From the IMG/VR virus record IMGVR_UViG_3300029653_000081, positions 1 through 34,518 of that record: DNA of 34,518 nt, one strand, 5' to 3'. The position numbers and the translations under genes are program-made. The stretch comes from a virus. Lineage: Duplodnaviria > Heunggongvirae > Uroviricota > Caudoviricetes. Shown one piece after another: positions 3,969 to 34,518 of this stretch. The notes beneath the pieces are model-generated. The model made no database searches, was not told the origin of the DNA, and was given only the letters and a program-made list of their open reading frames with translations. The number at the start of each line of letters is the position of its first letter. Positions within the stretch are counted from its first letter, which is position 1.

Positions 3969-4194
3969 TAGATTGCTCTAATCTGGAGTCACCTGGCGTT
4001 TTCAGTATGGATTTTCTTTGGCGCGGTCTGGCCATTAGGGATCATGTTTGCTGCAACATTTCTTCTGATGTGGATATTCACCCTTCCCGGTGATTTCTAT
4101 AGAAAAAAAGCCAGACATTGATACAATCATTGCGGGTGCTTGAGGCTATCTGCTTCAGGCATTACCCGAAAAGCAGATAGAAGAAAGCCCCAGA

Positions 4195-4255
4195 TAACAT
4201 TACGCGTCCTGCAAGACGCTTAACATTAATCTGAGGCAATATCTATGCTTAGCAT
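4195..4255 (-). ncRNA. sok: sok-like antisense RNA (position inferred)
   Basis: Expected opposite the mok translation initiation region. A minus-strand TTGACC -35-like hexamer is at 4284-4289. Boundaries are not determined. Confidence 0.3.
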
Positions 4256-4451
4256 ACGTAGATTAGCCTCTTACCGACCAAAAGGTCAAGGAGAAGCAGG
4301 CTATGAAGCAGCAAAAAGCGATATTAATCGCTCTGATCGTCATCTGTTTAACCGTCATTGTGACGGCACTGGTAACGAGGAAAGACCTCTGCGAGGTACG
4401 AATCCGAACCGGCCAGACGGAGGTCACTGTCTTCACAGCCTACGAATCTGA
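4245..4451 (+). CDS. mok: mok-like overlapping reading frame
   Basis: 68-aa ORF starting upstream of, and overlapping out of frame with, the hok-like CDS, as in hok/mok/sok loci. Confidence 0.45.
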   Translation: MLSIRRLASYRPKGQGEAGYEAAKSDINRSDRHLFNRHCDGTGNEERPLRGTNPNRPDGGHCLHSLRI

Positions 4452-4458
4452 AAGGTAA
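4303..4458 (+). CDS. hok: Hok/Gef-family type I toxin (51 aa)
   Basis: ATG at 4303, TAA at 4456. Translation MKQQKAILIALIVICLTVIVTALVTRKDLCEVRIRTGQTEVTVFTAYESER has the Hok hydrophobic helix and the conserved TRK.LCE.R...E...F.AYES pattern. Confidence 0.85.
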   Translation: MKQQKAILIALIVICLTVIVTALVTRKDLCEVRIRTGQTEVTVFTAYESER

Positions 4459-4532
4459 GAGACCTGGCGGGGAGAGATCCTCGCCACTCTTCGTGTGTCA
4501 GGTATCCTCAATGCACCCTTTCCTCTCCAAAT

Positions 4533-10160: not shown

Positions 10161-11126
10161 TTATTCCCCAGCAGACATTTTCCCAATGATTTTTTTTATT
10201 GCTTCGTCAATTTCAGTTTGCACTTCAGACGGGAGTCTGGAGAACTCGTAGGCGACAACCCGTTTTTTCGGATCGGACTTCTTTCGGGCATATTGGCGAC
10301 GGTCAGAGAAGTCTCGCAGCTTCTCAACCACCACAGATTTAACCGGCGCGGGCTTCAGGCTTTTGCTTTCCGCTTTGAAGATAGCCAGTATCTTCGCTTT
10401 ATCCTCTTTCGCGCCCTCAGTCTCTGCAATTCGTTCGCGCACCGTATCAACCAGCTCTTCAATCGGCACGCTTTTAGCGTTAGCATCCTCGGCGATCTGG
10501 AGCAGTAACTGGTAATCTGGAAGGGCGAGATCGCTGGCTACGGGGAAGACAGCAATCATCTCATCCGGCACCGCGGCAGCCTGGAAAGCTCGCGTCACTT
10601 TTGCCTTTGAGATGTTCTCAGCTCGGGCGATCTCTTCTTTGGTCATATTCTTACCGTACATAACCTCGAAGCGTTTACCCAGCTCGCGCAGAGTGTGTTC
10701 GCGGGCTGTCTGGATATCAATGGCCAGCTGGCGGGCATCCGCCAGGCTGATCTCATCTTTCGTCACCAGAATCTCAAATTTCGTTTCATTGAAGATACAC
10801 GCAGCGCGGCGACGCGATCCGTCCAATACCTCAATGCGCTCCCCAACCATACGACCGATAGCCGGGAAGAACTGTTGCAATTTAATGGTGCGGGAAATAT
10901 CGCTTACCGACTCAGGGGTGAGCAGAGACTGATCGCGGCCGTTAACTGCCGGGTCAACGAACGTGCGCGACTCAATCTCACCACTCAGCACGACGGTAAG
11001 CAAGAATTTAGCCTGGCGGCCAGATTTTAGGGTAAAGGTTTTGGTGCCTTCACTGCCTTCAAGCATGCGAGCAAACTCGGAGCTATTCTTGCCCAGCACT
11101 CGTCCACGGGAAACTATTTTTTTCAT
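10161..11126 (-). CDS. parB: Partition protein ParB
   Basis: 321 aa with ParB-like segments (GRDQSLLTPESV, LDGSRRRAA, SKAKVTRAFQAAA); overlaps the parA stop. Confidence 0.9.
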   Translation of the reverse strand: MKKIVSRGRVLGKNSSEFARMLEGSEGTKTFTLKSGRQAKFLLTVVLSGEIESRTFVDPAVNGRDQSLLTPESVSDISRTIKLQQFFPAIGRMVGERIEVLDGSRRRAACIFNETKFEILVTKDEISLADARQLAIDIQTAREHTLRELGKRFEVMYGKNMTKEEIARAENISKAKVTRAFQAAAVPDEMIAVFPVASDLALPDYQLLLQIAEDANAKSVPIEELVDTVRERIAETEGAKEDKAKILAIFKAESKSLKPAPVKSVVVEKLRDFSDRRQYARKKSDPKKRVVAYEFSRLPSEVQTEIDEAIKKIIGKMSAGE

Positions 11127-12334
11127 GCCGCCTCACCCCTAACAAACTCAATTCGATCAAACACAGCCTTAGTGAAACGCTCGGCCTCGGTTCGTGCCTT
11201 CTTCAGCGCCTCTGCACTGCCTGGATACGATTGCGGGTTGGCACTGATTACGGTGTCGAAAGACTCGCCGCATCGCTCAAAGCCATCCAGACGAGGCAGA
11301 GAAGAGTCCAGAATGTTGCTGGCGTAAACCTCACGCGCAAGGCTGTGTGATGTCTCGTGATCGCGCTTGCCGGTCATCTTCGACATAAAACCAATGCTGG
11401 CGCTCAAACGCGGTTCTACGCCTTCCTCCTCCAGTTGCTCCAGCATTTCTGGCAGACGGGTGAGATATTTCAGTGTTGAGTGGAAGTCAACCTGGGCTGG
11501 TGGGGTAGGGGTAAGCAGCAAATCGCTGGCCGCCAGACCGTTGAGCAGGAACGGATCCAGGTGTGGACCGGTATCAATAAAGATAAAGTCATAATCATCC
11601 GCAACACGATCAATGATATTGCGTCGAAGGATTTCGTACTGATTTTGTCCGGGAAGATGCTCTTCAACCAGCTCTTTCCATTGGCTGGCAACAAAGCCAT
11701 CGTCGATAGAGGCTGGAATCACGTCTACGCCAGGAACGATGGTCGGACGAATCACCTCTTTGCGTAGCGTCTCCGCGTCCAGGTCGTTCAGCATCGCCTG
11801 CGCGGCGGTTTCCAGGATGGAACCAATACTGTGAGTATGGTCGAGGAACATTGTGCTGGATGCCTGAGGGTCAAGGTCAATTACCAGAATGCGCAGATCG
11901 TGACGCAGTAAATCCTGATGCACACGCAGAGCGTGCGCCAACGTGACTGTGGAAACCGTTTTGGATACGCCACCCTTCAGGTTTACGACAAAAATAACGT
12001 AAGGCGATTTGTGAATGTCGCGATATTTGGGGATCTTACGGTGGGCATAGATATCAATGACGTTCTGGATGGTCAGCGCGTACTGTTCAACGTTACCGAC
12101 CTGTTTCTTGTTGAACTGGTACCCATCATCTTCCATCTCTTTGATGGCCTGCTCCACAATACGGCGGCTCAGCTTCGGCAACTTTGCCACAGCGTTACGA
12201 GTGAACGTCTGATAATACTCGGTCTGATTGAACTCTTTGCGCTGATCTTCAATATCCTGACTCATGGCCTTAAGTAATGCGCTTGCACGAAGAGCTATGG
12301 TGCCGACACCGCCGTAATCGCGTTTCATCATCAT
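11123..12334 (-). CDS. parA: Partition ATPase ParA (type Ia)
   Basis: 403 aa; deviant Walker A NLKGGVSKTVST, plus VIDLDPQ and FIDTGPHLD motifs; long N-terminal extension typical of P1-type ParA. Confidence 0.9.
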   Translation of the reverse strand: MMMKRDYGGVGTIALRASALLKAMSQDIEDQRKEFNQTEYYQTFTRNAVAKLPKLSRRIVEQAIKEMEDDGYQFNKKQVGNVEQYALTIQNVIDIYAHRKIPKYRDIHKSPYVIFVVNLKGGVSKTVSTVTLAHALRVHQDLLRHDLRILVIDLDPQASSTMFLDHTHSIGSILETAAQAMLNDLDAETLRKEVIRPTIVPGVDVIPASIDDGFVASQWKELVEEHLPGQNQYEILRRNIIDRVADDYDFIFIDTGPHLDPFLLNGLAASDLLLTPTPPAQVDFHSTLKYLTRLPEMLEQLEEEGVEPRLSASIGFMSKMTGKRDHETSHSLAREVYASNILDSSLPRLDGFERCGESFDTVISANPQSYPGSAEALKKARTEAERFTKAVFDRIEFVRGEAA

Positions 12335-12430
12335 CTCCTTATCATTTCGTATGAGTGAATTGTACGTTTGATTCTGCTACGTGCAACTTTTTTTGATTCG
12401 TGCGTCAATTATTGCACGTAAAGAAATGGC

Positions 12431-12730
12431 GATGTGGCTATTAGATGTGTGCTGGAGGGATGATGCAGGACCAGAATGTGCGATAGAGGGAAGTCGCATT
12501 AAATTATGTGCTGTGGAGGGATCGCTGGTATCAAATATGTGTGCTGGAGGGAAAGGCAGAGAATTACATGTGCACTGGAGGGAAAAACGGATGGACAGAT
12601 GTGTGCTGGAGGGAAAGTCTGGGCAAACTGCGGGGCGTCCCCCTCCAGCGCACATCAAAAACAGGAAATTAGACAAGCCTTCCCGGCAGCACACATATTT
12701 TTAATGCAGCTTCCCTCCAGCACACACTTA
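12431..12730. repeat. incA: incA iteron array (about nine 19-bp RepA-binding repeats, both orientations)
   Basis: Direct copies of (G)ATGTGTGCTGGAGGGAAA-like repeats near 12444, 12474, 12504, 12536, 12567, 12598 and inverted copies near 12639, 12678, 12710. Confidence 0.85.
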
Positions 12731-13588
12731 TTCTGGGAGTTTCAGCTTTGGATTGCGAGAATGGACGATTACAAAACTTTCCCGGCCTTTCTTCTCAATT
12801 GAACAGTCGAGATAGCCGATTGTTTTAAGCTGTTCTATCGCTTTCTTAATGATACGGTTTTGCTCGCCAACAGCTGACTGCAAAGCCAGGCGCTCACGGA
12901 TTCGGGCGAAAGATAGCGGCAACGGATTCTGCGGAAGGCTTTCGATGAAAGTGTAAATGGCTTGTGCAGCTTCTTTCTTCGGAAGGGCACGCAAGGCGTG
13001 GTGTTGCAACAGAACGCGATAATCAAGCTGGAACAGCTCCCACAGCTTCGAATCAGCCTCCAGCTCTATCAGATCAAGGTCAGCATCAAAACGACCGACC
13101 TTTAGCAGACCAGTCTGATAGCCGCCTTTAGCATCTTTTCCGCGCTTAAAAGCGATACCCTTGTTACGTAAGCGTCCAAGTGATTCATGAATGGTTAAAC
13201 GCAGTTTCGCATCCAGACGTTTTGAGGGGAAACCACAGGCTTTAGCGAATTCCTGAAACGATAACTGGATGGTGTTTGAGGACAAGCCGTATTTGCTGAA
13301 CGCGTAGATGACACCGATCCACGTTTTGAAATCAGTATCCATATCGAGTCGAGGACCGGTGATTTTAATATCATCGTAACCCTCGGCTTTAGCTATCTCC
13401 AGCTGGGAAAACGCTTTGGTGGCATCAATCTCTTTACTTTCTCCTTTGCTCTTTGATGGCTTCGGAACGAATACCCCCAAGCGCATCAATGCTACAGGCT
13501 GGACAGTGTTGTTTGAATTAACTGTTAGTTCTTTTGCCTTACTTTCAATGTCTGCGTAAAGAATATCGGAGATAAATGATTGATTCAT
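12728..13588 (-). CDS. repA: Plasmid replication initiator RepA (286 aa)
   Basis: Flanked by iteron arrays on both sides and followed by parA-parB, the P1 plasmid replicon arrangement. Confidence 0.9.
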   Translation of the reverse strand: MNQSFISDILYADIESKAKELTVNSNNTVQPVALMRLGVFVPKPSKSKGESKEIDATKAFSQLEIAKAEGYDDIKITGPRLDMDTDFKTWIGVIYAFSKYGLSSNTIQLSFQEFAKACGFPSKRLDAKLRLTIHESLGRLRNKGIAFKRGKDAKGGYQTGLLKVGRFDADLDLIELEADSKLWELFQLDYRVLLQHHALRALPKKEAAQAIYTFIESLPQNPLPLSFARIRERLALQSAVGEQNRIIKKAIEQLKTIGYLDCSIEKKGRESFVIVHSRNPKLKLPE

Positions 13589-14937: not shown

Positions 14938-15726
14938 TTACTGTGCCGCTTTGTTTAATTCATCAAGAACAGAATCAGGAACCAAAGCGGCAACTGCGCT
15001 GGCTGTGCTGGCCTTATTTGCTGATGCTTCCGCAAGCGCGGTACCGATAGCATGGTTATAAGCAGTTATGGCTACGTTGGCGCTTTCATTCGCTCGTTCA
15101 TACTGCTGTTGTAACGCAGTTGTGGGCGCTGTTGTCTGGTTGAAAACAACCCCAAACTGTTCAGTTGCTACTTTCAGAGATTCAATTTGCTCTTCTGTTA
15201 GTGCTGGTGGGGGAGTGGCAGTGCCGCCGCCTGAACCAGAGCCTGACGAGCTTCCTGAGCCAGTGTTAAGGGTCTGGTTAATCTCCCCCATAGCAGCAAC
15301 TAAACTTGATGTATTAAGCGCGTTTACAGCGTCCTCAAGCGATTTAGTAATAGTCACATCACCAATGGCAATAGAGATCGGCAGTTCTGAAACTTCTCGC
15401 TCATTAGCACGGCAGTAAACATCCCAACCAATATCGAGTTGAAGCAGCATTGACAGATCTGCATAACCAGCCAACAGGTCCGCGTGCTTAGTTGCCAGTT
15501 CGACAATGTTCGTTAAGCCTGTTGTGGTTGTTCTGATCGTTGAAACATAACTGGTAATAGTGTCGGGATAGACAATTGTATCCAAAATTAATCCGATCAA
15601 TTCTTCTGCAAGCTGTTTTGCCGTGTTAGCACTGTTTCGTGCCGATGTTATGGCACCAAGTGTTTTCATCCCACCGGCTGCGGCCAATTTTTTATATGCG
15701 GATAACTGGTAGTCTTTTTCCAGCAT
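14938..15726 (-). CDS. Two-domain protein joined by a Gly/Ser-rich linker (about 262 aa), function unknown
   Basis: ATG at 15726 with AGGAG SD (tracked ORF extends to 15783); linker GSGSSSGSGSGGGTATPPP. Confidence 0.4.
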   Translation of the reverse strand: MLEKDYQLSAYKKLAAAGGMKTLGAITSARNSANTAKQLAEELIGLILDTIVYPDTITSYVSTIRTTTTGLTNIVELATKHADLLAGYADLSMLLQLDIGWDVYCRANEREVSELPISIAIGDVTITKSLEDAVNALNTSSLVAAMGEINQTLNTGSGSSSGSGSGGGTATPPPALTEEQIESLKVATEQFGVVFNQTTAPTTALQQQYERANESANVAITAYNHAIGTALAEASANKASTASAVAALVPDSVLDELNKAAQ

Positions 15727-15734
15727 GATATCTC

Positions 15735-16019
15735 CTAACTTACCTGAACTAGGCCGTCTCCGGACGCTACGGTAGATCCGCATGAAACAGGGTCACCAAC
15801 GCATACGATCCCTTTACCATTGACGGTAAACCATGCCCTGGTTGATATAGCTTGCCCACCGTGCGTACTGTTTCCATCGGTATGCTGTGCATATTGCTTA
15901 CCATCAACTAACACTTCGACTCCGTTGACTTTAAGTAGTGGTTCACTCTCTACAGGAGGCCTGGATGGGAATCCTCCGTGCCCCGAACAAATGCTGTCTT
16001 TTGTTGCAATACTTGCCAC
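15735..16019 (-). CDS. PAAR-like small protein (94 aa), possible tail spike tip
   Basis: GTG start; CSGHGG, THGG and VNGKGIVCVGDPVSCGS motifs resemble PAAR repeats. Confidence 0.45.
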   Translation of the reverse strand: MASIATKDSICSGHGGFPSRPPVESEPLLKVNGVEVLVDGKQYAQHTDGNSTHGGQAISTRAWFTVNGKGIVCVGDPVSCGSTVASGDGLVQVS

Positions 16020-16100
16020 GTCGTCACCAATGATTTGCTCTGATTTTCGTTATTTTAACTTAGGTTATTTGTGGTCTGTATGGCGTTTACTTATTACAAA

Positions 16101-16117
16101 ATTGCTCTAATAAATAT
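16101..16117 (+). promoter_or_regulatory. C1 repressor operator upstream of the uhr-rdgC-dmt operon
   Basis: ATTGCTCTAATAAATAT (16 of 17); TTGCTC -35-like with TTATAT/TATATC about 16-17 nt downstream. Confidence 0.8.
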
Positions 16118-16188
16118 TGTTTTTTATATCGTGTTTTCGGTACCATTCAGCCATCGCCCTTCAATGGGCATTTGTTTGGAGTCGTCAG

Positions 16189-16473
16189 ATGCAGATGGAG
16201 CTAATAAGCCGCAAGGAGTTCGATAGCCGTGTAACCAGCGGTGAACTCGACAACTTGCAGGCTATCAAGGTGAAAGAAGGCTTTTGCCTCATTGGGAATC
16301 AGAGCGGAACAAATCGCGTTTTTATGCTTCGCCGTACGGATTTGAAGCCATTTGTCTGGAAGAACGAAATTGGTCCCAGCTCATACGCTCAAACGAGGGG
16401 GTGCCACAACTTGGCCTTTTTCTACAAAGACGAGCTTTCTGTGGTTGATATTCAAGGGTTACAACATGTTTAA
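16189..16473 (+). CDS. Small protein upstream of rdgC (uhr-like, 94 aa)
   Basis: ATG at 16189 with GGAG 8 nt upstream; overlaps the rdgC start by 8 nt. Confidence 0.45.
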
Positions 16474-17371
16474 GCACTGGAAAAATATTACTATTTATAA
16501 ACTTTCTCGTGAGGCGGATCTGACCGACTTAGAAGATAAAAAGAAAATGATCCTTTTCACGCCATGCGGTAGTCAGGATATGGCCAAGTTCGGTTTTGTA
16601 TCGCCATTTGGTGATAATTCCGAAGTTATCGCTATGCATGGAAATGGTTTTATCCTTGTTGAAGCAAAGCGCGAAACAAAAATTCTTCCCCCGCCGGTTA
16701 TCCAGCGAGCTATTCAAGAAAAAATTGAAAAACTTGAGCAAGAACAAGCGCGTAAACTGAAGAAAACAGAGAAGGACTCCCTGAAAGACGAAGTTCTGCA
16801 TTCTCTTCTGCCACGGGCTTTTTCAAAGTTTTCTGTTATCCAGGCGATCTACGACGGTTCAACTAAACGTATCTATATCAATGCCAGCGCGCGGCAGGCA
16901 GAGGATATGCTCGCGCTTATGCGTAAGTCTCTGGGTTCTCTTCCTGTTGTGCCACTAAGTGTTGAAAATCCCATTGAGTTAACGCTGACCGACTGGGTAC
17001 GTGATGCTAGTGCTCCACAGGGATTTCAAATGGGGGATGCGGCAGAACTTAAGGCAGTGCTTGAGGATGGCGGTATCGCCCGAGTGAAAAAGCAGGATTT
17101 GGGAAGCGATGAAATTTCCACACACCTGGAAGCTGGCAAGCTCGTCACTAAGTTGGCACTCGACTGGCAGAACCGCATTAAATTTACACTGGACCATAAC
17201 TTCAGCATTACCAGCGTCAATTTTGCGGATGAATTGCTTGAGCAGAACTCTGATATTGATAGTGAAGATGTTGCGCAGCGACTGGACGCAGATTTCTTCC
17301 TATTGACCAGTGAAATTTCGTGCCTGGTTGATGCTCTGGTAAATGCCCTTGGTGGAGAGGCTAAGCAGTGA
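16466..17371 (+). CDS. rdgC: RdgC-family recombination-associated protein (P1 hrdC-like)
   Basis: 301 aa from [15 protein letters not shown]; [38 protein letters not shown] and GSLPVVPLS closely resemble E. coli RdgC as recalled. Confidence 0.8.
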
Positions 17372-20250
17372 AAGAGCTGTGCTATGGATCTGTTTGCAGT
17401 GGAATTGAAGCCGCGAGTATTGCCTGGGAACCGTTGGGTATGCGTCCGGTTTGGTTTGCTGAAATCGAGCCTTTTCCATCGGCCGTTCTTGCGCTCCGCT
17501 GGCCCCATGTCGCCAACCTTGGCGACATGACAAAACTTGCCAAAAAAGTCTTGGCTGGGGAAATCGAATCCCCTGACGTGCTCGTCGGGGGAACACCATG
17601 TTTTACCGCGGGGCATATGGTTCTTTGTAAAAATGGTTATAAACCAATAGAAGATGTTTGCCCTGGCGATTACGTAGTCAGTCATCTCGGGCGGTTACAA
17701 CAAGTAAAAAGAGTTGGTTCAAAAATAGCTAATACGGGGTTACTTAATGCCGTTGGGCAGCCTTTAGGTATAAGAACAACCAATGACCATCCCTTCCTGG
17801 CTGTTCGGTGGAAAGCCCAAAACACCCGGAAAAATGGCACATATTTTAAGAGAGAGTTGTTGTCTGAACCGGAATGGCGAGCAGCATGTGATATGCCGGG
17901 ATATCAATGGTGCGCTCTAACTAATTTCAATATTGCATCTCCAGATATTTGTTCTCGGTTCTTGTCTGAAGAACAGGCTATGTATCTTGCGGGCGCTTAT
18001 GTTGGCGATGGATATATTAGGAGATGGAGAGGTAAATCTAAGAAGGCGGTTGTTTTTGGCATAAATTGCCAGAAATTGAGAAAGTTTCATTGCCGCATAC
18101 CAGAAAACATATTTTCCGTGGCAAGCGAAATCCGAGGGAGCATCAAAGTAACCTTGAATGATACGTGTTATGCCAATTGGCTTAATGAACATTTTGGCGA
18201 GTTAAGCCATGCTAAGCGTATCCCTGCATGGGTGATGTCGCATCCATTGCGTCATGTGTTTTTACAAGGCTATCTTGATACTGATGGGACACCAAGTGGT
18301 AAAGCGGGATTTAGAATTAATAGTGTTAGTCCTGCGCTTGCTTGGGGCGTTGCGGGGTTGTCACAGACTTGTGGTTATGTTTCTTCGGTCAGCTTTATTG
18401 AAGTTGAGCCCAAAAAAGTGATCGAGGATCGCGTGGTAAATCAACGGAATTATTATCAGGTAACAATCTGCCCGCAGAAATTGTCACGTAAATCAAGATT
18501 GGCTCATGGAATGCTTTTACGAACAGTCAAAGAGTTTAAATCGGTAGGCCTAGATACTGTATACAACATAGAAGTCGAAGGTGATCATTCCTATATCCTC
18601 AATGGTGCGGTGGTCCATAACTGTCAGGCATTCAGTATCGCGGGATTACGTGGTGGGCTTGATGATGAGCGTGGCGCGCTAACTTTAAAGTATGTGGAGC
18701 TTGCAAATGCAATTGACGACAAACGGGCTGAGTCATTTCTCAAACCAGCCGTTATTGTCTGGGAAAATGTCCCAGGAGTCTTGTCATCGGCAGATAACGC
18801 CTTCGGATGTTTCCTTGCCGGATTGGCTGGAGAAGATGCGCCATTTGAACCAGGTGATCGACCTGAATCAGGAAAAAGTAACGCGTTCTGGCGGTGGGAT
18901 GGCAAAACCGGTTGCCATGCTCCAAAGTGGCCGCAGTGTGGTTGTATTTATGGGCCGCAGCGAAAGGTGGCCTGGAGAATCCTTGATGCCCAATACTTCG
19001 GAGTGGCACAACGACGCCGACGCGTGTTTGTTGTCGCAAGTGCTCGAACAGACCTCGATCCCGCAACGGTACTTTTTGAGTTCGAAGGCGTGCGCCGGGA
19101 TATTGCGCCGAGCAGAGGCGAGGGGAAGGAAACTACCAGATATACTTCAAACATCGCTATCAGATCTTGCGATGATACAAACATAGTTGCCATGGCACAT
19201 GGGCAAGGAGGGGCTGAGATAAAAACCGATAATTCGGCACCAACTTTAACATGTAACCATGAAGCACCAATTGTATTGCTCGGCGACGGTAGAATACGCC
19301 GTCTTACCCCTGTCGAATGTGAAAGGCTGCAAGGTTTTCCTGATGGGCATACGTTGATCCCTACGGAAAAGCGTAAAAAAGTTTCTTCAGATGAACTGGC
19401 ATACCTTCGCAATAACTATCCTGATTTAAGCGAAGAAGAGGCCGCGATGCTTGCAGCTGACGGACCGCGTTACAAAGCGATCGGCAATAGTATGGCAATA
19501 CCAGTAATGCGCTGGATTGGCGATCGGATTACTAAGGCCGTATGTCGGCAGAAAGAAGGAAGTGAAACAAAAGAGCGAAAAGTTAAACCAGCGGCAGAAT
19601 TCGAACGGTCCATATTCAAATGGGCTGGTGGAAAATTTGGTGTTCTGGAACAAATCTTTCGCTATTTGCCAGAAGGGAAGCGCCTGATTGAACCTTTCGT
19701 TGGTGGCGGAGCTGTCTTCATGAATGCCGGATACCAGGAAAATCTGCTAAATGATGTGAATGCTGACCTGATTAACTTTTACAAGACTCTGCAACGCGAG
19801 GCGCATTCACTTATCACTCTGGCACATCGTTTCTTCCAGGACTACAACACACAGGAAGGATACCTGGCAGTACGGAATGCGTTTAACAAACAAGTCTATG
19901 ATGATTTACATCGCGCAGCGGCGTTTTTGTTCCTGAACCGACATTGTTTTAACGGATTGACGCGTTACAACCAGGCCGGTGAGTTCAATGTCGGTTATCC
20001 GGACATGAGTCTCGATAAAGCATGCGGTATTTATCACGGCATGCGAATTGAGCTTAAAGAACCAAATGGTAAAGCCCCGACGAAAGAGCAGATCGCCTGG
20101 ATGCGCAGGCTTAGAGAGGAAGGTTACTACGTCGTTCTTGCGTATGGTGCAGAACAAGCGATAACCGCCATCCTGGAATACATAAGCCTTAAAAAGGGTG
20201 AGGCTATTGAGCATGTATTGAACGGCGACAAGTGGTTGTATGCCACTTAA
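17368..20250 (+). CDS. dmt: Dmt-like multidomain DNA methyltransferase: C5-cytosine MTase interrupted by an intein, then a Dam-like domain and a nuclease-like tail
   Basis: GTG start coupled to the rdgC stop. C5-MTase motifs: [13 protein letters not shown] (split), [33 protein letters not shown]. Dam-like segment FKWAGGK...[10 protein letters not shown]...[23 protein letters not shown]. No DPPY-type motif anywhere in the protein. Confidence 0.85.
17599..18621 (+). other. Intein (341 aa) with LAGLIDADG homing-endonuclease motifs inside dmt
   Basis: Begins Cys (CFTAGHMVL), ends VVHN, followed by Cys+1; contains [11 protein letters not shown] and [10 protein letters not shown]. Excision would join GGTP to CQAFSIAG, restoring motif IV. 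Confidence 0.8.
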
Positions 20251-20316
20251 AATAATAAATTAATTAGTGCACATGTGCTCTTTGATATAGCGCACATTAA
20301 CATCGGGAGAATAATC

Positions 20317-20472
20317 GTGTCATTCAAGGTTAATTATGAATCGCTGGCATCGATCATGCCGCGTAATGAACAGGAAGCAGATGCTGTAGTGGACCCGGTA
20401 ATCGCTGAAATGAATGCTCGCCTGGAGGCTGAATTTGCAGCTGAGAATGAACATACCACCCAGGGCGACTAG
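20317..20472 (+). CDS. Small acidic hypothetical protein (about 51 aa)
   Basis: GTG preceded by GGGAGA; tracked ORF starts earlier at 20275. Weak evidence. Confidence 0.25.
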   Translation: MSFKVNYESLASIMPRNEQEADAVVDPVIAEMNARLEAEFAAENEHTTQGD

Positions 20473-21076
20473 GACTGTTTTTTGTGTCGGTAGCGGTCCG
20501 TCACTCACTCGTGAGGACTGTGCTGCTATAGAAAAAACTGGCTGTTCAATCATTGCGGTTAACAATTCCTGGCTGATGTTCGATGACATTTATGCCTTAT
20601 ACGCCGGTGATTTGTCATGGTGGAAGCAATACGGTTCCACCATACCGGGAGGGAGGTTCCGCAAAGTGACAGCCAACCTGGCGGCGGCGAAATCATTTTC
20701 GTTGGAGTACAGGCGATATTGTGGACCGGCGGAAGGGGTAAATAGCGGCGCGCAGGCTATCAGTCTGGCTGCTGAATCAGGGGCTGAAGTAGTGGTATTA
20801 GTCGGCTATGACTGTTCTCTGCAAAACGGCCTTCATTGGCATGGCGCGCACCCTCAAGCCCTACGGAATCCAACGCAGGTGTCTATTTCAAAATGGCAAC
20901 AGCAGTTCCTGGATACCCGCAAAAAACACGCAGATTTACATATTTTGAATGCAAGTAGGAGCAGTGCAATTCAATGTTTCCCAAGAATAAATTTAGAGGC
21001 AGTGATCGCGTTATTATCGTCGGCAGTGGCCCAAGCGCCGCAAACTTTGTTGCGCCGCGCGGAGTGCCGATTATAG
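20444..21076 (+). CDS. Rossmann-motif protein, paralog 1 (possibly DUF115/MptE-like transferase)
   Basis: N-terminal VFCVGSGPS, IIAVNNS, and NSGAQAISLAAESGAEVVVLVGYD; paralogous to the next gene. Family assignment is from memory. Confidence 0.5.
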   Translation, partial: RMNIPPRATRTVFCVGSGPSLTREDCAAIEKTGCSIIAVNNSWLMFDDIYALYAGDLSWWKQYGSTIPGGRFRKVTANLAAAKSFSLEYRRYCGPAEGVNSGAQAISLAAESGAEVVVLVGYDCSLQNGLHWHGAHPQALRNPTQVSISKWQQQFLDTRKKHADLHILNASRSSAIQCFPRINLEAVIALLSSAVAQAPQTLLRRAECRL

Positions 21077-21600
21077 CGGTCAATGGGGCTATCGACTGGC
21101 TTAACCGCGCTTCTTATTTTTTCACCCTTGATCCATCCCCAGACAATATGCGGCGCGTTGGTCGTGGCCGCCGTCGCCGTGGTGTTTGTTATTGCATGGC
21201 ACTACCCGATGTTAAAGAACGTGAAGTCAGAGATGGCGTTCTGTGCTTCCGTCGTGTGGCTGAACGCGGCACAGAGCCAAAAAATACGAATTCTCCCGAG
21301 TGGTGGGCGTGGCGCTGGTCCGCACATTTCGGCCTTTGCGAAGATGAGAATGAAATTGCCAGCGGCAATAGTGCATATGGTGCTCTGAACCTGGCTTTCC
21401 ATATCGGATTCAAACATGTAGCCCTGGTGGGCGTTGACGCTACGCAAGAACTACGCGTTCACTCCGGCGGCACGCCAAAAAATCTAAGTCACCTGCCTTT
21501 GTTATTCCAGTCTGCGCGTGAACAGATTGACGTTGTTTCATGCGGGAAAATGGGAGGTATTCCGCAGATGACTCTTAAAGAATGGCTGAAGAATACATGA
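20974..21600 (+). CDS. Rossmann-motif protein, paralog 2
   Basis: [40 protein letters not shown]; its start overlaps the 3' end of paralog 1. Confidence 0.5.
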
Positions 21601-22274
21601 TGGCACCCACAATTTATCACCGTATCGACGGTACCAAATACAGGAATGTCTGGGTTGTTGGTGATCTGCATGGTTGCTACACCAGACTGATGTCCGAACT
21701 CCATCGTGTGGATTTTGACCCGGCGCAGGATTTACTGATATCGGTCGGCGACCTTATCGATCGCGGTACTGAAAATGTCGAATCTCTGGAACTATTGCAG
21801 ATGCCCTGGTTCAGGGCAGTAGTGGGGAACCATGAGCTGTTGATGCTCGATGCGTTAAGTCCTGATGGCAACGTGAATAACTGGCTAATGAATGGCGGTC
21901 AATGGTTCTTCATGCTGGACGCTGATCAGGAAATATTAGCCAGGGCGCTGGTGGAGTTGGTAAGACGACTGCCCTATATCATTGAGTTGAACACCGGGCA
22001 AGAAACTATCGTTATAGCCCATGCCGACTATCCGGATAATGAATATCAATTCGGTAAGGAGGTGCCGCTTTTCAACGTTGTCTGGGCGCGCGAGCGTATC
22101 AGTGATTCGATGGATGATATTGGTGGCGAAATTTCGGGCGCAGATCGTTTTATCTTTGGTCACACTCCGGTGAAAAGCCCGAAGACATTCTGGAATCAGC
22201 ATTATATCGACACAGGTGCCGTATTTTGCGGAAACCTGACATTGAAGAAAGTGAAAGGTGATGGTGCAGCATGA
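21582..22274 (+). CDS. Lambda-type Ser/Thr protein phosphatase (metallophosphatase)
   Basis: GDLHG, GDLIDRG and GNHE motifs; start may be ATG at 21597 or 21600. Confidence 0.85.
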
Positions 22275-22971
22275 AGATTGCTTTAGTTCTTCGCTCTGGT
22301 GGTGACTATAACGCTTCCGATGTGCAGTGGCTGGTTAATCAACTGCCAAAAGACTATGAAATTATTTGCCTGACAGACCTGAAGTGTTTACATGTACCTG
22401 GCGTCAAAGTTATCCCATTGATCAACCAGTGGCAAAAGTGCCGTGGCTGGTGGGCGAAAATCGAGTTGTTCCGACCGGATATAACCGATGATCTGTTCTA
22501 TCTGGATTTGGACACGGTTATTGCCGGTGATATACGCCCAATCCTAGAGAATCCACCAACCAACTTCACCATGCTTAGGGATTTTTACCATCCACAATAT
22601 CGTGGCAGCGGGGCCTGTGGATACCAAATAGTGTAAAAGCGCATATCTGGAGTGCATTCTGGCAAGATCCGGAAGGTTGGATTGCTCGTTGTGTTACTAC
22701 TGAATGCTGGGGTGATCAGGGGTTTTTGCGGAAGGTTATGGGTGATGATACACCAGCATTTCAGGATCTGTATCCGGGATGGTTTGTAAGTTACAAGGCC
22801 GATGTTGTGGAACCTGGTTCGAAATATGCGAGCGCGCGTTACTCCAGGGGGAATGGGGCATTACCAAAAGACTGCCGAATAATCTTTTTCCACGGCAAAC
22901 CGCGACCTCGCGAAGTGTCAGAGGATTGGATTCCCCTTACCAGCTCGTTTTTTGAGCAAGTATCAGAATAA
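22271..22971 (+). pseudogene. Glycosyltransferase-like gene (DxD motif) split by a one-base frame change
   Basis: Frame 2 (22271-22636) contains YLDLDTVIAGDI; frame 1 is open from 22579 and continues to 22971 (..ECWGDQGFL..). The frames overlap around a G4 run at 22610-22613. Confidence 0.5.
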
Positions 22972-25299: not shown

Positions 25300-25378
25300 G
25301 GGGAGTATATTAGCCATTTGGAACCCCACGAGCTCTTGCGGGTTTAATTAAGAACCCGCAAGAAAAACACGAATTGGG

Positions 25379-28300
25379 CTATATTTTTCCGCCTACGCCT
25401 TTAAACTTCTCAATAAACGAGACGATTTTCTGGAAAACTGCCTGTTTTTTCGTTTTATATTGCGGATTCAACGGACTAAGTTTTGGTAATGTTTCGTTTA
25501 ATTCTGTGCCATTTTCGGTGGCGTATTCGCGTTTTAAAGACGTGCGAATATAGCGTTTTGCTGCATCTTCATTGAGATTTTCTTCTTTTATCAATGCTTC
25601 TGCTTCACGTTGCTGTTCGCGTTGAGCAAACGTAAAGAATGCCTCAATGATACTGGCTTTGTCTGGTAAATCATCCAGGTTCGTTTGCTGAATAAAATCG
25701 ACCACCAGGCCCTCTTTCGCCCGGTTCCCCAGGCTTGAACGAATTAAGCGTTTGACCTCTTCGATCATTTCGCCCTTGCCTTTATTTTGTCTGTTGTGTT
25801 CGAAAATCAGTCCAAGGATATAATCCAGGTTTATTTCCTGAGACTTCAGCAAATCGACCTCAAAAACCACGTCATCCCAGTCAGTGGTTGATTTCTCTTT
25901 TTTCTCAGCTTCTTTCTCACGGCGCTGCCAGTCGCGAATATCGTTATAGGCAGAACGATAATCCTGAATCTTGCGATCAGCAGGGAGACGAATTGTTTGC
26001 AATTCAGCGAACTTTTCATCATCCACATAATGTTCTGCTTTGAATTTTTCTACCGCAACAGGATCGCTAAGATCGATTTGTTGCAGGGCTTTTAGCGTGG
26101 CAAATTCATCATAGTTTTGCAGGATGTTCTCGGCACGCAGGTATTCGCCAAACAGTTTAACGAAGTCTTTCTTCTCTTTTTCACTTTCAATACTGGCAGG
26201 GTCAGGGAACCGTTGTTCCAGTTCTGAAACTACTGCCATAAAGCCGCGTTTGGCTTCACCGGTGGCAGCATCAGTAAAACCTTCCATATACTCTGCATAA
26301 CTCTTTTCTAACACCACATTTTTGGTATTTTTATCACCAAACAGCGTTATGGCATCAATGGTTGAGCGTTCCAGATCCCGAAAAGTGACAATGTTACCGA
26401 AGGTTTTAGTGGCGTTATAAATGCGGTTGGTGCGGGAAAATGCCTGCATCAGGCCGTGAAAACGCAAGTTTTTATCGACGAATAGCGTGTTCAATGTTGG
26501 AGCGTCGAAGCCGGTTAAAAACATCCCAACGACAATTAACAGATCGATATCCTGATTTTTAACCCGTTGGGCTAAATCGCGATAGTAGTTCTGAAAACCG
26601 TTACCGTCGGTGCTGAAGTTAGTTTTAAAATAGCTGTTATACTCACGAATTGCAGCGTCAAGAAACTCTTTAGCACTGCTGTCCATTGCGCTGGTATCAA
26701 AAGTTTCATCGGAAATTTCACCAATGGCATTTTGTTCTTCATTAGCGGCAAAGGAGAAGATTGTCGCAACACGCAGCGGTTTATAAGTTGCAGATTTATT
26801 AGCGGCTTCCTCTTGTAACCGTTTAAACGCCGCGTAATAGGCTTTTGCAGCATCCACGCTGCTCACTGCCAACATAGCATTAAAACCTTTTGCGCCAGGG
26901 AAAGTACGGTGCGTCTTCTGGCGGAAGTTATTCAGAATATATTGCGTAATTTCCTGTATACGCATGGGATGAAGAAACGCCTGCTGATTTTCAGCCGCAC
27001 TTAGTTTTTTCTCGTCAGTTTCTGTCTCTAAAGACTTAAACTGTGGCCGCACATCGTTGTAGTCCACCTTGAATTTGAGCACTTTTTCATCACGAATCGC
27101 ATCGGTAATTACATACGAATGCAATTCACGACCAAATACGCTGGCGGTCGTTTCTGAGCCTAAGGCGTTTTCCGGGAAAATAGGTGTGCCGGTAAAACCA
27201 AACTGATAATAGCGTTTGAATTTCTTCTTCAGGTTTTTCTGCGCTTCTCCAAACTGGCTGCGGTGGCATTCATCAAATATAAACACCACTTGCTGATTAT
27301 ATACAGGCAGGTCGCTTTCTGCTTTCATCAGGTTATTGAGTTTCTGAATAGTAGTGACGATAATTTTGTTATCGTCCTTATCCAGATTTCGTTTAAGGCC
27401 TGCGGTATTTTCCGAGCCGTTGACGCTGTCTGGCGAAAAACGCTGATATTCCTTCATGGTCTGGTAATCGAGGTCTTTCCTGTCGACCACAAAGAAGACT
27501 TTATCAATAAAGTCCAGCTCTGTTGCCAGACGCGCGGCTTTAAAGCTGGTGAGGGTTTTACCAGAACCGGTAGTGTGCCAGATATACCCACCGCTTTCCG
27601 GTTTTGACCAGTTCTTCGCTGTAAAGGAACTCTTAATTTTCCACAGAATGCGCTCGGTGGCGGCAATCTGGTACGGTCGCATCACCAGTAGCGTCTGACT
27701 ACTGTCAAAAACGCTGTAGTTCACCAGAACATTCAGCAGAGTATGTTTCTGGAAAAAGGTAGCGGTAAAGTCTTTGAGGTCTTTAATCAGCGTGTTGTCT
27801 GATTTCGCCCAATTCATGGTGAAGTCAAAACTGTTTTTATCGCGCTTTGTCGTGTTGGCAAAATAACGGGTATCGGTGCCGTTAGAAATGACAAACAGTT
27901 GCAGATACTTAAACAGGGAATTTTCGCTGTTAAAACTCTCTTTACTGTAACGATGTATCTGGTTGAAAGCCTCACGAATCGCCACCCCGCGTTTTTTTAG
28001 TTCGATTTGCACCAGCGGTAAACCATTAACCAGGATCGTGACGTCATAACGGTTAGCATGAGAACCCGTCTGTTCAAACTGCTGGATAATCTGCACCTTA
28101 TTGCGCATGAGATTCTTTTTATCTATCAAATAGATGTTCTCAAGTCGCCCGTCATCAAAAATAAAGTCGCAGATATAGTCGATATGGATTTTACGGGTTT
28201 TATCCAGAATACCATCGCTGGGGTTGTCCAGATACTGCTCCGTGAAGCGCCGCCACTCGCTGTCATTAAACATCACACCATTGAGGCTCTGAAGCTGTTC

Positions 28301-28495
28301 CCGAACATTGGACAGCATTGCCGACTGTGATTTTACGGAAATAAATTCATAACCCTGATTTTGCAGGTCCTGAATCAGTTCACGTTCCAGGTCCGATTCG
28401 CTCTGGTAGCTGTCGCCTGTTGGCTCAGCTTTGATGTACTTATCAAGAACGATAAAGTTATTGGATTCAGCAATGGTGTGTGTCTGATGAGTCAT
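25379..28495 (-). CDS. hsdR: Type I restriction enzyme R subunit HsdR (1038 aa)
   Basis: Helicase motifs TTGSGKT and [10 protein letters not shown]; size and position after hsdM-hsdS. Confidence 0.9.
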
Positions 28496-28616
28496 AGCGC
28501 ATCCTTTGTGCCGTCTGGCAAGGGCCGGAAGGGGGGTAATGGTGACTTCCGGCGCGTAAAAAATAGTCTATATACTGACCGGGTGTTAAGGTGGTCCGAT
28601 CGGTAGCAATGATCAA

Positions 28617-29822
28617 TTAATTACTGGCAGTTTCAGGTTTCGGGAAACTGAACAGTAAATCACGGTAGTATTCGTATTGTTTCTGGCGCAACTCGATTTC
28701 ACGCGGAAGACCTTCGGTGATGGAAGCTGCGATTGCATCAAACTTATCCAGAATATCCACAATACGCCCCTGTTCGTCTAAAGATTTTTGAGGGTGAGAT
28801 GGGTATGGAATAGGTACTCTGACTTGTTTCAGTGCATTAGCATTAAACTGTGGTTGCCCACCACCAGATACTAATTTATTAGCCTGTTCCCAAAAAAAAT
28901 CACTTTGTGCAAAGTGCCAGTAATATTTGGCATTAATAATCGTTTTATTTAGGTTCAACTTTATTAAAAAACCAGCGTATACTGCTGGATAATCTTCTTC
29001 AAAAATCATTGTTTTACCAAAGGTTGCCCCAGTTCTTGCCATGAGTAAATCATTTTTGTCTAAGGTATATTTCTCATTTTCCTCATTTAATTCAACGTAC
29101 ATTGGGTTTTCTTTCGATAGCTTCCCGTCTTTATTTATGTCAGTAATTCTCACGAAACGGGCATCTCCTGAATCCATGGCTTTGGCTGCATATCCATATG
29201 TAAAATCTCCAATTTCCCCCAAAGTCTTCCACTCAACCTCACCATCTTTAAAACTCAACAACTGGTCGCGATAGTAGTTGTACTGTTTTTTACGCATGTT
29301 AAGCTCAGCGGTAAGCTCAGCGGTAAGTGCAGTAAATTTATCCAGAATCCGAACGATTTCAGACTGGATGGCAAGGGATTTTTCCGGATTATCCGGGCAG
29401 GGGATGGGGATAGGGAAATTCTCTAAGGTTGATAGCACGATATATGTCATTGCCGCGCTATTTGTTCTTTCCTCGAGATATTTCTTCAGGCTATGGCTAA
29501 GCACAAAATACAAAAATCTAACACTTACATTTTCGTCGAAATTTGTCAGAACATAGGTGCGCTGATAAGCCTCAAACTTGCCGATGTAATGCTTCACCTC
29601 ACCAACATTCGCATTGCCTGCAATCAGCAATGCCTCTGTATCCCAGCGGAATTTATCAATTTTGCTTGTCTCTTTGGCTGTCGTGAAGAACATATACTCT
29701 CCATCATCAACAGCCGCATTCGCATTAAGCTTTCCTGTTTCAATTTTGCAAGTTTGCCCAAGTGTCTTCCACTCAACCTCAACCCCATCCAGCAATTTTT
29801 CCAGATAACTCATCTCGCTCAT
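28617..29822 (-). CDS. hsdS: Type I specificity subunit HsdS (401 aa)
   Basis: Two target-recognition halves each ending in a conserved repeat ([19 protein letters not shown] and [19 protein letters not shown]); 4-nt overlap with hsdM. Confidence 0.85.
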
Positions 29823-31381
29823 TTCTGCACCTCGCAGCCTTCAATTTCAGCCACAATTGCATCAATATCTTTACGCAACTGGTCGATTTTGCTGACCGTG
29901 GTTTTCAGCTCTGCATTCAGCTCACCGATATCGATAATTTCGCGGTTATCTTTCGCTTCCACATAGCTGCTCACCGACAGGTTATAGTCATTCGCGACAA
30001 CAGTCTCAAACGCAACAGATTTCGCCAGATGAGCAACATCTTCCTTGCTGGCAAATACCTGCATAATCTGTTCGATATGGGCATCGGTCAGGATATTGTT
30101 GTTGGTTTCTTTTTTGAACAGTTCGCTGGCATCAATAAACTGAACTTTGGTATCCGTTTTATGTTTAGACAGCACCAGAATGTTTACAGCAATAGTGGTG
30201 CCAAAGAACAGGTTCGGTGCCAGTGAAATCACGGTTTCGACATAGTTATTATCGACCAGATACTGACGGATTTTCTGCTCCGCGCCGCCACGGTAAAAAA
30301 TACCCGGGAAGCAGACAATCGCAGCACGACCTTTGGCCGAAAGATAGTTCAGCGCATGTAGTACAAACGCAAAGTCAGCTTTGGATTTGGGGGCCAGGAC
30401 GCCAGCCGGGGCAAAACGTTCATCGTTAATCAGCGTCGGGTCATCGCTGCCAATCCATTTCACCGAATACGGCGGGTTAGAAACGATGGCATCAAACGGT
30501 TTTTCATCTCTGAAGTGTGGCTCAGTCAGTGTATTACCCAGCTTGATATCAAACTTGTCGTAGTTGATGTTGTGCAAAAACATGTTCATACGTGCCAGGT
30601 TATAGGTTGTATGGTTGATTTCCTGACCAAAAAAGCCTTCTTCGATGATATGGTTATCAAACTGCTTTTTAGCCTGCAACAACAGTGAGCCGGAACCCGC
30701 TGCCGGGTCGTAGATTTTGTTAACGTTGGTCTGCCCGTGCATAGCCAGTTGTGCAATCAGCTTGGAGACGTGCTGCGGTGTAAAGAACTCACCGCCTGAC
30801 TTACCGGCATTTGCCGCATAGTTAGAAATCAGGAACTCATAGGCATCACCGAACAGGTCAATCTGATGTTCGTTGAAGTCACCAAGTTTTAACCCTTCAA
30901 CCCCTTTCAGAACCGCAGCCAGGCGGGCATTTTTATCTTTAACGGTGTTACCCAGGCGGTTACTGGTGGTATCGAAATCAGCAAACAAACCTTTGATGTC
31001 TGCTTCTGAAGGGTAGCCGTAAGCAGAACTTTCGATAGCAACGAAGATGCTGTTTAAATCTGCGTTCAGTCTGTCATTGGTATTTGCTTTCGCAGCTACG
31101 TTGCAGAAAAGCTGACTGGGGTAGATGAAGTAGCCTTTAGTTTTGATGGCATCGTCTTTAATGTCATCAGTAATTACGCTGTCATCCAGTTTCGCATAAC
31201 AGATACTGTCATCACCGGCTTCAATATAACTGGAAAAATTTTCGCTGATAAAACGGTAGAAAAGTGCGCCCAGAACGTATTGCTTAAAATCCCATCCATC
31301 GACCGAACCCCTGACATCGTTAGCAATTTGCCAGATTTGACGATGAAGCTCTGCACGTTGTTGAATACTTGTCATTTTCAT
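29819..31381 (-). CDS. hsdM: Type I N6-adenine methyltransferase HsdM (520 aa)
   Basis: NPPY motif ([10 protein letters not shown]) and AdoMet-binding [11 protein letters not shown]. Confidence 0.9.
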
Positions 31382-31489
31382 CCACTTATTTCAGGCTTAT
31401 GTAATTGGCGGTGATTCTACAGCAACTTGGATGCTTTAGCAGTTCGGACATTAGGCTACGAATGACCTGCCTAGAGGTTTGTTAAGCCG

Positions 31490-31557: not shown

Positions 31558-31779
31558 ATGCAATCCATTAACTTCCGTACCGCGCGCGGCAACCTTTCTG
31601 AAGTGCTCAACAATGTTGAAGCCGGGGAAGAGGTTGAAATCACCCGCAGAGGTCGTGAGCCAGCAGTAATTGTCAGCAAGGCTACTTTCGAAGCCTACAA
31701 AAAAGCGGCGCTGGATGCTGAATTTGCATCCCTGTTTGACACCCTGGACTCCACCAACAAGGAACTGGTTAACCGATAA
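31558..31779 (+). CDS. phd: Phd antitoxin (73 aa)
   Basis: [39 protein letters not shown]... matches P1 Phd as recalled; stop overlaps doc start (TAATG). Confidence 0.95.
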
Positions 31780-32159
31780 TGAGGCATATATCACCGGAAG
31801 AACTTATTGCGCTTCATGATGCGAATATAAGCCGCTACGGCGGCCTGCCGGGAATGTCAGATCCGGGTAGGGCAGAGGCCATTATCGGGAGAGTTCAGGC
31901 CAGAGTTGCCTACGAAGAGATCACCGACCTTTTCGAAGTCTCCGCCACCTACCTGGTGGCTACAGCGAGAGGGCATATATTCAATGATGCCAATAAGCGT
32001 ACCGCGCTAAACAGCGCGCTGCTATTTCTACGCCGTAACGGGGTGCAGGTATTTGATTCACCTGAACTGGCAGACCTTACTGTAGGCGCTGCGACTGGCG
32101 AGATATCTGTATCTTCTGTCGCCGACACGTTACGTAGATTGTATGGTTCTGCGGAGTAG
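31779..32159 (+). CDS. doc: Doc toxin (Fic-fold kinase, 126 aa)
   Basis: Fic-type motif [10 protein letters not shown]; tight coupling to phd. Confidence 0.95.
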
Positions 32160-34041: not shown

Positions 34042-34455
34042 GTGACCTGGGACGATCACAAGAAGAATTTTGCTCGCCTGGCGCGAGATGGTGGTTACAC
34101 CATCGCACAATATGCCGCCGAGTTTAATCTCAACCCAAACACCGCACGTCGTTATCTCCGTGCATTCAAAGAAGACACCGGAACAGCGGACAGCCGTAAG
34201 CCAAATAAGCCTGTCAGGAAACCACTAAAAAGCATGATCATTGATCACGCTAATGATCAACGTGCAGGTGATCACGTTGTGGCTGAAATGGATGAAAAAC
34301 AAAGAGTTAATGCCGTTGTCAGTGCCGCAGTCGATAATGCGAAGCGCCAAAATAAGCGCATAAATGATCGTTCAGATGATCATGACGTGATCACCCGCGC
34401 CCACCGGACCTTACGTGATCGCCTGGAACGCGACACCCTGGATGGGCTTTGTTGA
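34042..34455 (+). CDS. pacA: PacA terminase subunit, N-terminal part; reading frame ends after 137 codons
   Basis: GTG start with AGGAAG SD; the pac site lies within it; TGA at 34453-34455 and all three frames close within about 40 nt. Confidence 0.6.
34235..34393 (+). other. pac: pac packaging site with seven TGATC(A/G) hexamers
   Basis: Four hexamers at 34235-34274 and three at 34365-34393 flank an about 90-bp spacer, the 4+3 arrangement of the P1 pac site; each carries a Dam GATC. Confidence 0.85.
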
Positions 34456-34518
34456 ATAAATCGAACTTTTGCTGAGTTGAAGGATCAGATCACGCATCTT
34501 CCCGACAACGCAGACCGT

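Follow-up and report, generated by a model that had tools for sequence, protein, structure and literature searches.

Organization of the Chimeric Open Reading Frame

The stretch of DNA analyzed here (34,518 nucleotides at its full length, referred to as the window) belongs to a P1-like phage-plasmid and contains, on the plus strand, an open reading frame of 960 amino acids (17368–20250) in which residues 1–877 of the methyltransferase Dmt are fused in frame to residues 108–192 of PmgM, followed by the stop codon. The N-terminal part is a C5-cytosine methyltransferase that is interrupted by an intein. The N-extein (17368–17598, plus strand), identified with the Pfam DNA_methylase profile and collinear with P1 dmt, runs from motif I up to the GGTP of motif IV. 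The intein itself (17599–18621, plus strand) comprises 341 residues, from Cys78 to Asn418 and followed by Cys419; it is located inside the PCQ catalytic motif of the C5-methyltransferase and carries a LAGLIDADG domain. Matches to Pfam Hint_2 and LAGLIDADG_3 above their gathering scores and a sub-threshold match to Intein_splicing together indicate an intein. An intein at exactly the same point is present in OP279344.1 and absent from the reference P1 genome (NC_005856). The C-extein, with further methyltransferase motifs, and the linker follow (18622–19590, plus strand), and include an alternative variable region (19113–19296) that is shorter than its counterpart in the reference P1.

The remainder of the open reading frame consists of two incomplete domains. 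The N-terminal half of a Dam domain of the D12 class (19621–19998, plus strand) comprises motif I, a helical DNA-binding bundle and the recognition hairpin. The 3′ part of pmgM (19993–20250, plus strand; codons 108–192 and the stop codon) encodes strands 2–4 and helices 2–3 of a VRR-Nuc fold, with the PD, ExK and Q residues. The two overlap in a 6-bp microhomology, GGTTAT (19993–19998, plus strand), the deletion junction, located by three-way alignment and BLAST coordinates.

Upstream, we identified an operator for the C1 repressor (Odmt; 16101–16117, plus strand), with one mismatch, at the position of the annotated Odmt/Pdmt of P1. According to the P1 annotation, Odmt overlaps the promoter Pdmt of the uhr-hrdC-dmt operon, and for this reason the chimera is probably expressed only upon derepression.

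A Half Dam Domain Without Motif IV

An earlier note on this DNA, made from the sequence, described a Dam-like N-terminal half that lacks a DPPY/NPPY motif, and this feature is indeed found in the open reading frame at 17368–20250. With the Pfam MethyltransfD12 model, residues 752–877 correspond to profile positions 1–134 of 253 (E-value 1.6e-31). The match stops there, and no DPPY/NPPY sequence (motif IV) occurs in residues 740–960. The TIGR00571 model covers a similar part (profile positions 3–133 of 267) and still passes on this half profile, with a score of 149.6 against a cut-off of 114.85. The intact parent Dmt matches Pfam D12 positions 1–242 of 253, and aligns to residues 4–266 of E. 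coli Dam (EcoDam, PDB 2G1P) with a CDPPY sequence.

Alignment of the intact parent with EcoDam allowed us to place the break. Like EcoDam and other D12-class GATC methyltransferases, the chimera contains the motif I and recognition-hairpin regions, which align to EcoDam 4–135. Within this part, the FxGxG motif I for AdoMet binding aligns to EPFVGAGSVF of EcoDam, and the hairpin that recognizes GATC aligns to residues 111–133. The break corresponds to F135/G136 of EcoDam (278 residues), directly after the recognition hairpin (…GEFNVGY), and the later strands are gone. Unlike EcoDam, the chimera has no equivalent of residues 136–278, including the DPPY at 181–184, and methyl transfer is therefore not expected. 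A complete Rossmann-like domain is not present either, as only the first two of the nine strands predicted in an AlphaFold model of the intact domain precede the break.

A VRR-Nuc Tail Without Its First Catalytic Residue

The earlier note also pointed to a PD…ExK tail resembling a VRR-NUC core. The last 85 residues match chain residues 67–139 of psNUC (PDB 4QBL; E-value 6e-11), with GYPD, IELK and KEQ of the tail aligned to GYPD, IEIK and AQ of psNUC, which bears this out. psNUC, a dimeric Holliday-junction resolvase, is the nearest solved structure to PmgM (P1_gp086), which is annotated in the P1 record as a VRR-NUC domain protein and matches psNUC over its intact 192 residues with an E-value of 3.5e-17. 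With the Pfam VRR_NUC model, the tail scores 16.9–20.2 bits, below the gathering score of 23.8 bits. As intact PmgM falls short as well (21.2 bits), the model is simply weak for the PmgM subfamily.

The psNUC fold has an α-β-β-β-α-β-α arrangement with an E-PD-ExK active site stabilized by a conserved glutamine, and prokaryotic VRR-Nuc proteins dimerize via the central sheet (PMC4103454). The chimera shares residues 108–192 with PmgM, including PD, ExK, Q and the C-terminal helices, and differs from it by the deletion of residues 1–107, equivalent by alignment to psNUC 1–66. The tail begins at GYPD, which is residue 67 of the 145 residues of psNUC, and therefore lacks strand 1, the linker that leads on to strand 2, and helix 1, which carries the first catalytic Glu. 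Thus, neither the first acidic residue of E-PD-ExK nor the full α-β-β-β-α-β-α core, with its four-stranded sheet and dimer interface, is found in the tail. Taken over both domains, our searches detected neither a complete Dam catalytic core with a divergent motif IV nor a tail devoid of VRR-NUC/PD-(D/E)xK similarity.

Structure Prediction of the Two Remnants

We modeled the chimeric region (residues 735–960) with AlphaFold, using a trimmed alignment of 19 sequences. The mean pLDDT was 53.3, with values of 32–40 for the part containing motif I, 30–62 for the nuclease tail, whose alignment was nearly single-sequence, and 73–89 for the helical bundle of Dam. As a control of comparable alignment depth, the intact Dam domain was modeled with 16 of the same homologues, giving a mean pLDDT of 85.8, a pTM of 0.87 and values of 75–92 for the motif I part. 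Within the chimeric region, the prediction is confident for the Dam helical bundle, and for neither the motif I part nor the nuclease tail. Although pLDDT is not a measure of stability, these models are consistent with neither remnant being an autonomous fold, with the exception of the helical bundle.

A Deletion Between dmt and pmgM

The two halves can be traced to separate genes of P1. Positions 15456–17601, 18622–19112 and 19297–19997 of the window are collinear with P1 NC_005856 64500–68264 (upfC, uhr, hrdC, and dmt), bar the intein and the variable segment, and positions 19993–22322 match NC_005856 79171–81500 (the 3′ part of pmgM, pmgN, pmgO, pmgP, and ppp). The closest parent on the left side is OP279344.1, which has an intact dmt of 3042 bp with the same intein and is 100% identical over window positions 15300–19998. 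In both P1 and OP279344.1, dmt and pmgM are intact, separate genes at a distance of approximately 10.9 kb. As each half of the chimeric region is 98–100% identical to a known P1 gene, the similarities to Dam and VRR-NUC are far beyond chance.

With respect to P1 Dmt (P1_gp069; UYD72463.1 in OP279344.1), the DNA encoding residues 1–877 is 100% identical to that of the OP279344.1 allele, and the order of C5-methyltransferase and Dam domain, the uhr-hrdC-dmt operon and the Odmt operator are all shared. The difference lies in the last 136 residues of the 1013-residue parent, comprising DPPY and the rest of the catalytic fold, which are replaced by 83 foreign residues of PmgM.

In a three-way alignment, the dmt side reads …GAGTTCAATGTC GGTTAT GGGAAGTAT…, the pmgM side …CAGAAAAAA GGTTAT CCGGACATG…, and the window …GAGTTCAATGTC GGTTAT CCGGACATG…. 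Beyond this point, dmt of OP279344.1 continues with GGGAAGTAT…DPPY and a complete Dam domain. In P1 NC_005856, GGTTAT is located at approximately 68259–68264 in dmt and at 79171–79176 in pmgM, and is translated as Gly-Tyr in either gene. Codon 876 of the open reading frame and codon 108 of pmgM both begin at position 19993, so that the fusion is in frame. To the right of the join, the counterpart in OP279344.1 is its pmgM, and the identity to this record steps from 100% to 98.3% across the junction.

Between the breakpoints, P1 contains the last 412 bp of dmt, the Oban operators, the ban promoters, trnA, trnT, plp, upl, tciA, tciB, tciC, trnI, ban, dbn, genes 5, 6, 24, 7, 25, and 26, pmgL, and the first 321 bp of pmgM. 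The losses accordingly include the catalytic half of Dam, ban, three tRNAs, tciABC, six tail/baseplate genes, pmgL and the 5′ half of pmgM. The corresponding part of OP279344.1 (64315–75430) has no match within the window; these genes are absent from the contig, which is the part of the host genome seen here, and the rest of that genome may hold them.

We also considered, and rejected, a deletion mediated by an insertion sequence (IS) or by site-specific recombination at lox or cix. There is no IS at the junction and no lox or cix site is apparent by eye; the 6-bp microhomology is the only feature present.

Occurrence of the Junction in Other Assemblies

Records of exactly this 960-residue protein exist for 11 contigs from other assemblies, and the chimeric open reading frame is intact in about 30 contigs. 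Clustering at 90% yields eight distinct sequences of 960 residues, from Logan, ENA, NCBI, and JGI sources; one record (P0007) differs from the window protein at the first residue only (Val for Met). Three contigs (L007, L008, and L009, from runs SRR33981406, SRR4897177, and ERR14928264) share an identical junction segment of 206 bp that is 100% identical to the window, and L008 has one further deletion, of 754 bp. The identical junction in contigs of three runs and the protein in 11 contigs therefore show that the deletion is a genuine allele in circulation and did not arise during assembly.

In a megablast search of PLSDB, the RefSeq complete E. coli genomes and INPHARED, more than 560 records were found to hold both halves, none of them joined. 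An exact scan for the 37-bp junction in GTDB representative genomes, IMG/VR and JGI metagenome contigs returned nothing. All that is known of the lineage therefore comes from draft and run-level assemblies. A literature search on pmgM, the P1 Dmt intein and defective P1-like plasmids yielded nothing specific, and neither the complete records nor the literature searched contain a deletion that runs from dmt codon 877 to pmgM codon 108. Among the best 120 of 1061 homologues obtained with residues 717–960, no protein covers both halves and no other fusion of a Dam N-terminal half to VRR-NUC was present; this homology search did not return the cluster of the fusion itself.

The eight variants represent two haplotypes that differ at approximately 20 residues, located both before and after the junction. 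Haplotype B has four differences in the tail, which recur with 100% identity in intact pmgM of P1-like plasmids of E. fergusonii and E. coli, and by this comparison are standing pmgM alleles rather than the result of drift after the fusion. No amino-acid changes specific to the fusion were found.

State of the Element

The element shows other signs of decay: the contig has an IS end at either terminus, pacA is broken, and L008 has the further deletion. An IS1 end (1–142) lies beside a truncated sim region. At the other end, pacA is interrupted by the terminus of a multicopy IS (34445–34518), which we take to be IS903-like; this terminus is found in at least 5000 plasmids. The genes parB, parA and repA (10161–13588) and phd-doc (about 31558–32159) are retained, and a type I restriction-modification system has been inserted (25379–31381).

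Defective or cryptic P1 prophage-plasmids with internal deletions constitute the classical P1cry type. The element resembles these in having kept the P1 replicon and plasmid maintenance genes and having lost morphogenesis genes by deletion and IS insertion, and differs from them in its particular deletion (dmt codon 877 to pmgM codon 108), which none of the complete records or papers searched contains.

Discussion

The halves of the chimeric region are near-identical to separate, non-adjacent genes, they meet in a sharp microhomology junction, and the element shows other decay. On the basis of these sequence comparisons, we consider it very probable that a deletion of approximately 10.9 kb in a P1-like phage-plasmid left this region as its scar, fusing the front of dmt to the back of pmgM. 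Illegitimate recombination at GGTTAT would have joined dmt to codon 108 of the VRR-NUC gene pmgM, and the in-frame join would be happenstance, with a chance of one in three. After splicing of the intein, the chimera would be a protein of approximately 619 amino acids. Its N-terminal C5-cytosine methyltransferase, all motifs of which are readable, would be complete and may still work, while the last approximately 220 residues are likely to be inert, consisting of half a Dam unable to methylate and half a VRR-Nuc unable to cut. The element would thus have lost both its Dam activity and the nuclease activity of PmgM, leaving GATC methylation to the Dam of the host. GATC methylation at pac is required for packaging of P1 (PMC12707154), a requirement that is moot in this element because pacA is broken. 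With baseplate/tail genes 5, 6, 24, 7, 25, and 26 lost and pacA interrupted, the element is expected to make no infectious particles, and would be a plasmid remnant maintained by repA, parAB, and phd-doc.

The earlier note named both pieces correctly, as a Dam half without motif IV and a VRR-NUC-type tail, and read them as a Dam module still competent for binding, with a nuclease-like module attached to it. This architectural and functional reading is not upheld, as the pieces are fragments of the separate P1 genes dmt and pmgM. In its most developed form, it would describe an evolved protein in which a non-methylating module, binding DNA or AdoMet, targets or regulates a PD-(D/E)xK nuclease module. 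Motif I, the helical bundle (the sole part modeled with confidence) and the GATC hairpin are kept, as are PD, ExK and Q in the tail, and many contigs, as well as both haplotypes, have the open reading frame intact. Against this stand the 98–100% identity of the pieces to fragments of two intact P1 genes, joined by a 6-bp microhomology deletion, the two of nine predicted methyltransferase strands that are left, and a nuclease deprived of helix 1, the first catalytic Glu and strand 1 in a family that dimerizes through its central sheet. Moreover, the architecture recurs in none of the best 120 of 1061 homologues, residue changes specific to the fusion are lacking and the haplotype differences in the tail also occur in intact pmgM, which makes such a protein highly improbable. 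More broadly, the chimera might have been retained for some function, with the bundle and hairpin binding GATC and thereby tethering the C5-methyltransferase, or competing with host Dam or SeqA in a dominant-negative manner, or with deletion and fusion together forming a selected domestication step in a P1-derived lineage of two haplotypes; we regard this as very unlikely.

The two haplotypes with an intact open reading frame could be a sign that the chimera is retained, or that the event is older or has recurred. A deletion that recurs at a hotspot, or that was selected in the domestication of a prophage into a pure plasmid with the chimera as a hitch-hiking or mildly useful by-product, would fit the identical junction between flanks that differ on both sides, as well as the retention of repA, parAB and phd-doc, the gain of type I restriction-modification and the loss of virion genes. 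Six bp of microhomology 10.9 kb apart are, however, an implausible hotspot, and recombination between P1-like plasmids explains the mosaic flanks, including the drop in identity to OP279344.1; we consider recurrence or selection of this kind extremely unlikely. Since the haplotype-B tail is a standing pmgM allele, recombination explains it without selection, and recombination among P1-like plasmids appears to be the simplest account of the mosaic haplotypes. A chimeric contig assembled or binned from two non-adjacent P1 regions would account for the absence of the junction from every complete plasmid, phage or E. coli genome record searched, but is hardly credible in view of the 100% identical junction from three runs and the 960-residue protein from four sources. 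In addition, assemblers use word lengths at which an overlap of 6 bp should not lead to a false join.

The chimera is best described, then, as an ordinary deletion scar, with no new enzyme design or mechanism. Its parts are known P1 genes, deletion chimeras in defective P1 prophages are a known kind, and its particular junction is absent from the complete records searched. For annotation, it is a cautionary case: what might pass for an inventive domain architecture is a deletion junction, and TIGR00571 nonetheless calls a Dam methylase on half a domain. The dmt-pmgM junction at GGTTAT is, in addition, a specific marker: it identifies a defective plasmid lineage, derived from P1 and in circulation, in which ban, several tRNAs and tail/baseplate genes are lost and a type I restriction-modification system is gained, and it could help the tracking of P1-like phage-plasmids.

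Replaced DNA and Ongoing Decay of the Element

Insertion-sequence termini form both contig ends (positions 1–142 and 34445–34518 of the window). On the left, the terminus corresponds to P1's own IS1 copy and adjoins a truncated sim region. The right end, probably IS903-like, is the terminus of a multicopy insertion sequence, interrupts pacA and is found as the same end in at least 5000 plasmids. Downstream of repL, approximately 550 bp (3983–4532) without relation to OP279344.1, the closest relative on the dmt side of the junction, take the place of the rlfA-rlfB region. Between pap and phd, a type I restriction-modification insertion (25304–31481) with hsdR (25379–28495), hsdS (28617–29822) and hsdM (29819–31381), all three on the − strand, is present where P1 has the pmgT region; the contig L007 (from SRR33981406) carries the same insertion.

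In L008 (SRR4897177), whose copy of the element is 100% identical in all other respects, an extra deletion of 754 bp, equivalent to 16226–16979 of the window, has taken out uhr together with the 5′ part of hrdC. The lineage is thus still decaying.

Intein and Variable Region of Dmt

The C5-methyltransferase half of Dmt contains an intein of 341 aa with a LAGLIDADG domain (17599–18621, + strand), inserted at exactly the PCQ catalytic motif of the enzyme (GGTP / C...VVHN / CQAFS). This intein is absent from reference P1 and present in OP279344.1, RCS47, Ro157c2YLVW and 133 PLSDB plasmids, among approximately 565 records with this dmt/pmgM region, and is thus a presence/absence polymorphism. A full-text literature search found no paper on the P1 Dmt intein. 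The C5-methyltransferase part of dmt also has an alternative variable region of 184 bp (19113–19296), where reference P1 has 430 bp (67134–67563), making the window version 82 aa shorter and possibly giving the enzyme a different target specificity.

Dam Homologues and Annotation of the Chimera

Among the best 120 of 1061 homologues, several enterobacterial Dam homologues (P0047, P0083, P0101, P0103, and P0112) start with M(R/K)YGSVCSG(IEA/AAA), the opening residues of motif I of the Dmt C5-methyltransferase, here located almost directly before the Dam domain. These proteins look like further internal-deletion scars of the same gene family.

The truncated half-domain of the dmt-pmgM chimera (residues 735–960, 19570–20247) scores 149.6 bits with the NCBIfam profile TIGR00571 (“dam”), matching positions 3–133 of 267. 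As this passes the cut-off of 114.85 bits, automatic annotation pipelines will name the chimera a Dam methyltransferase.
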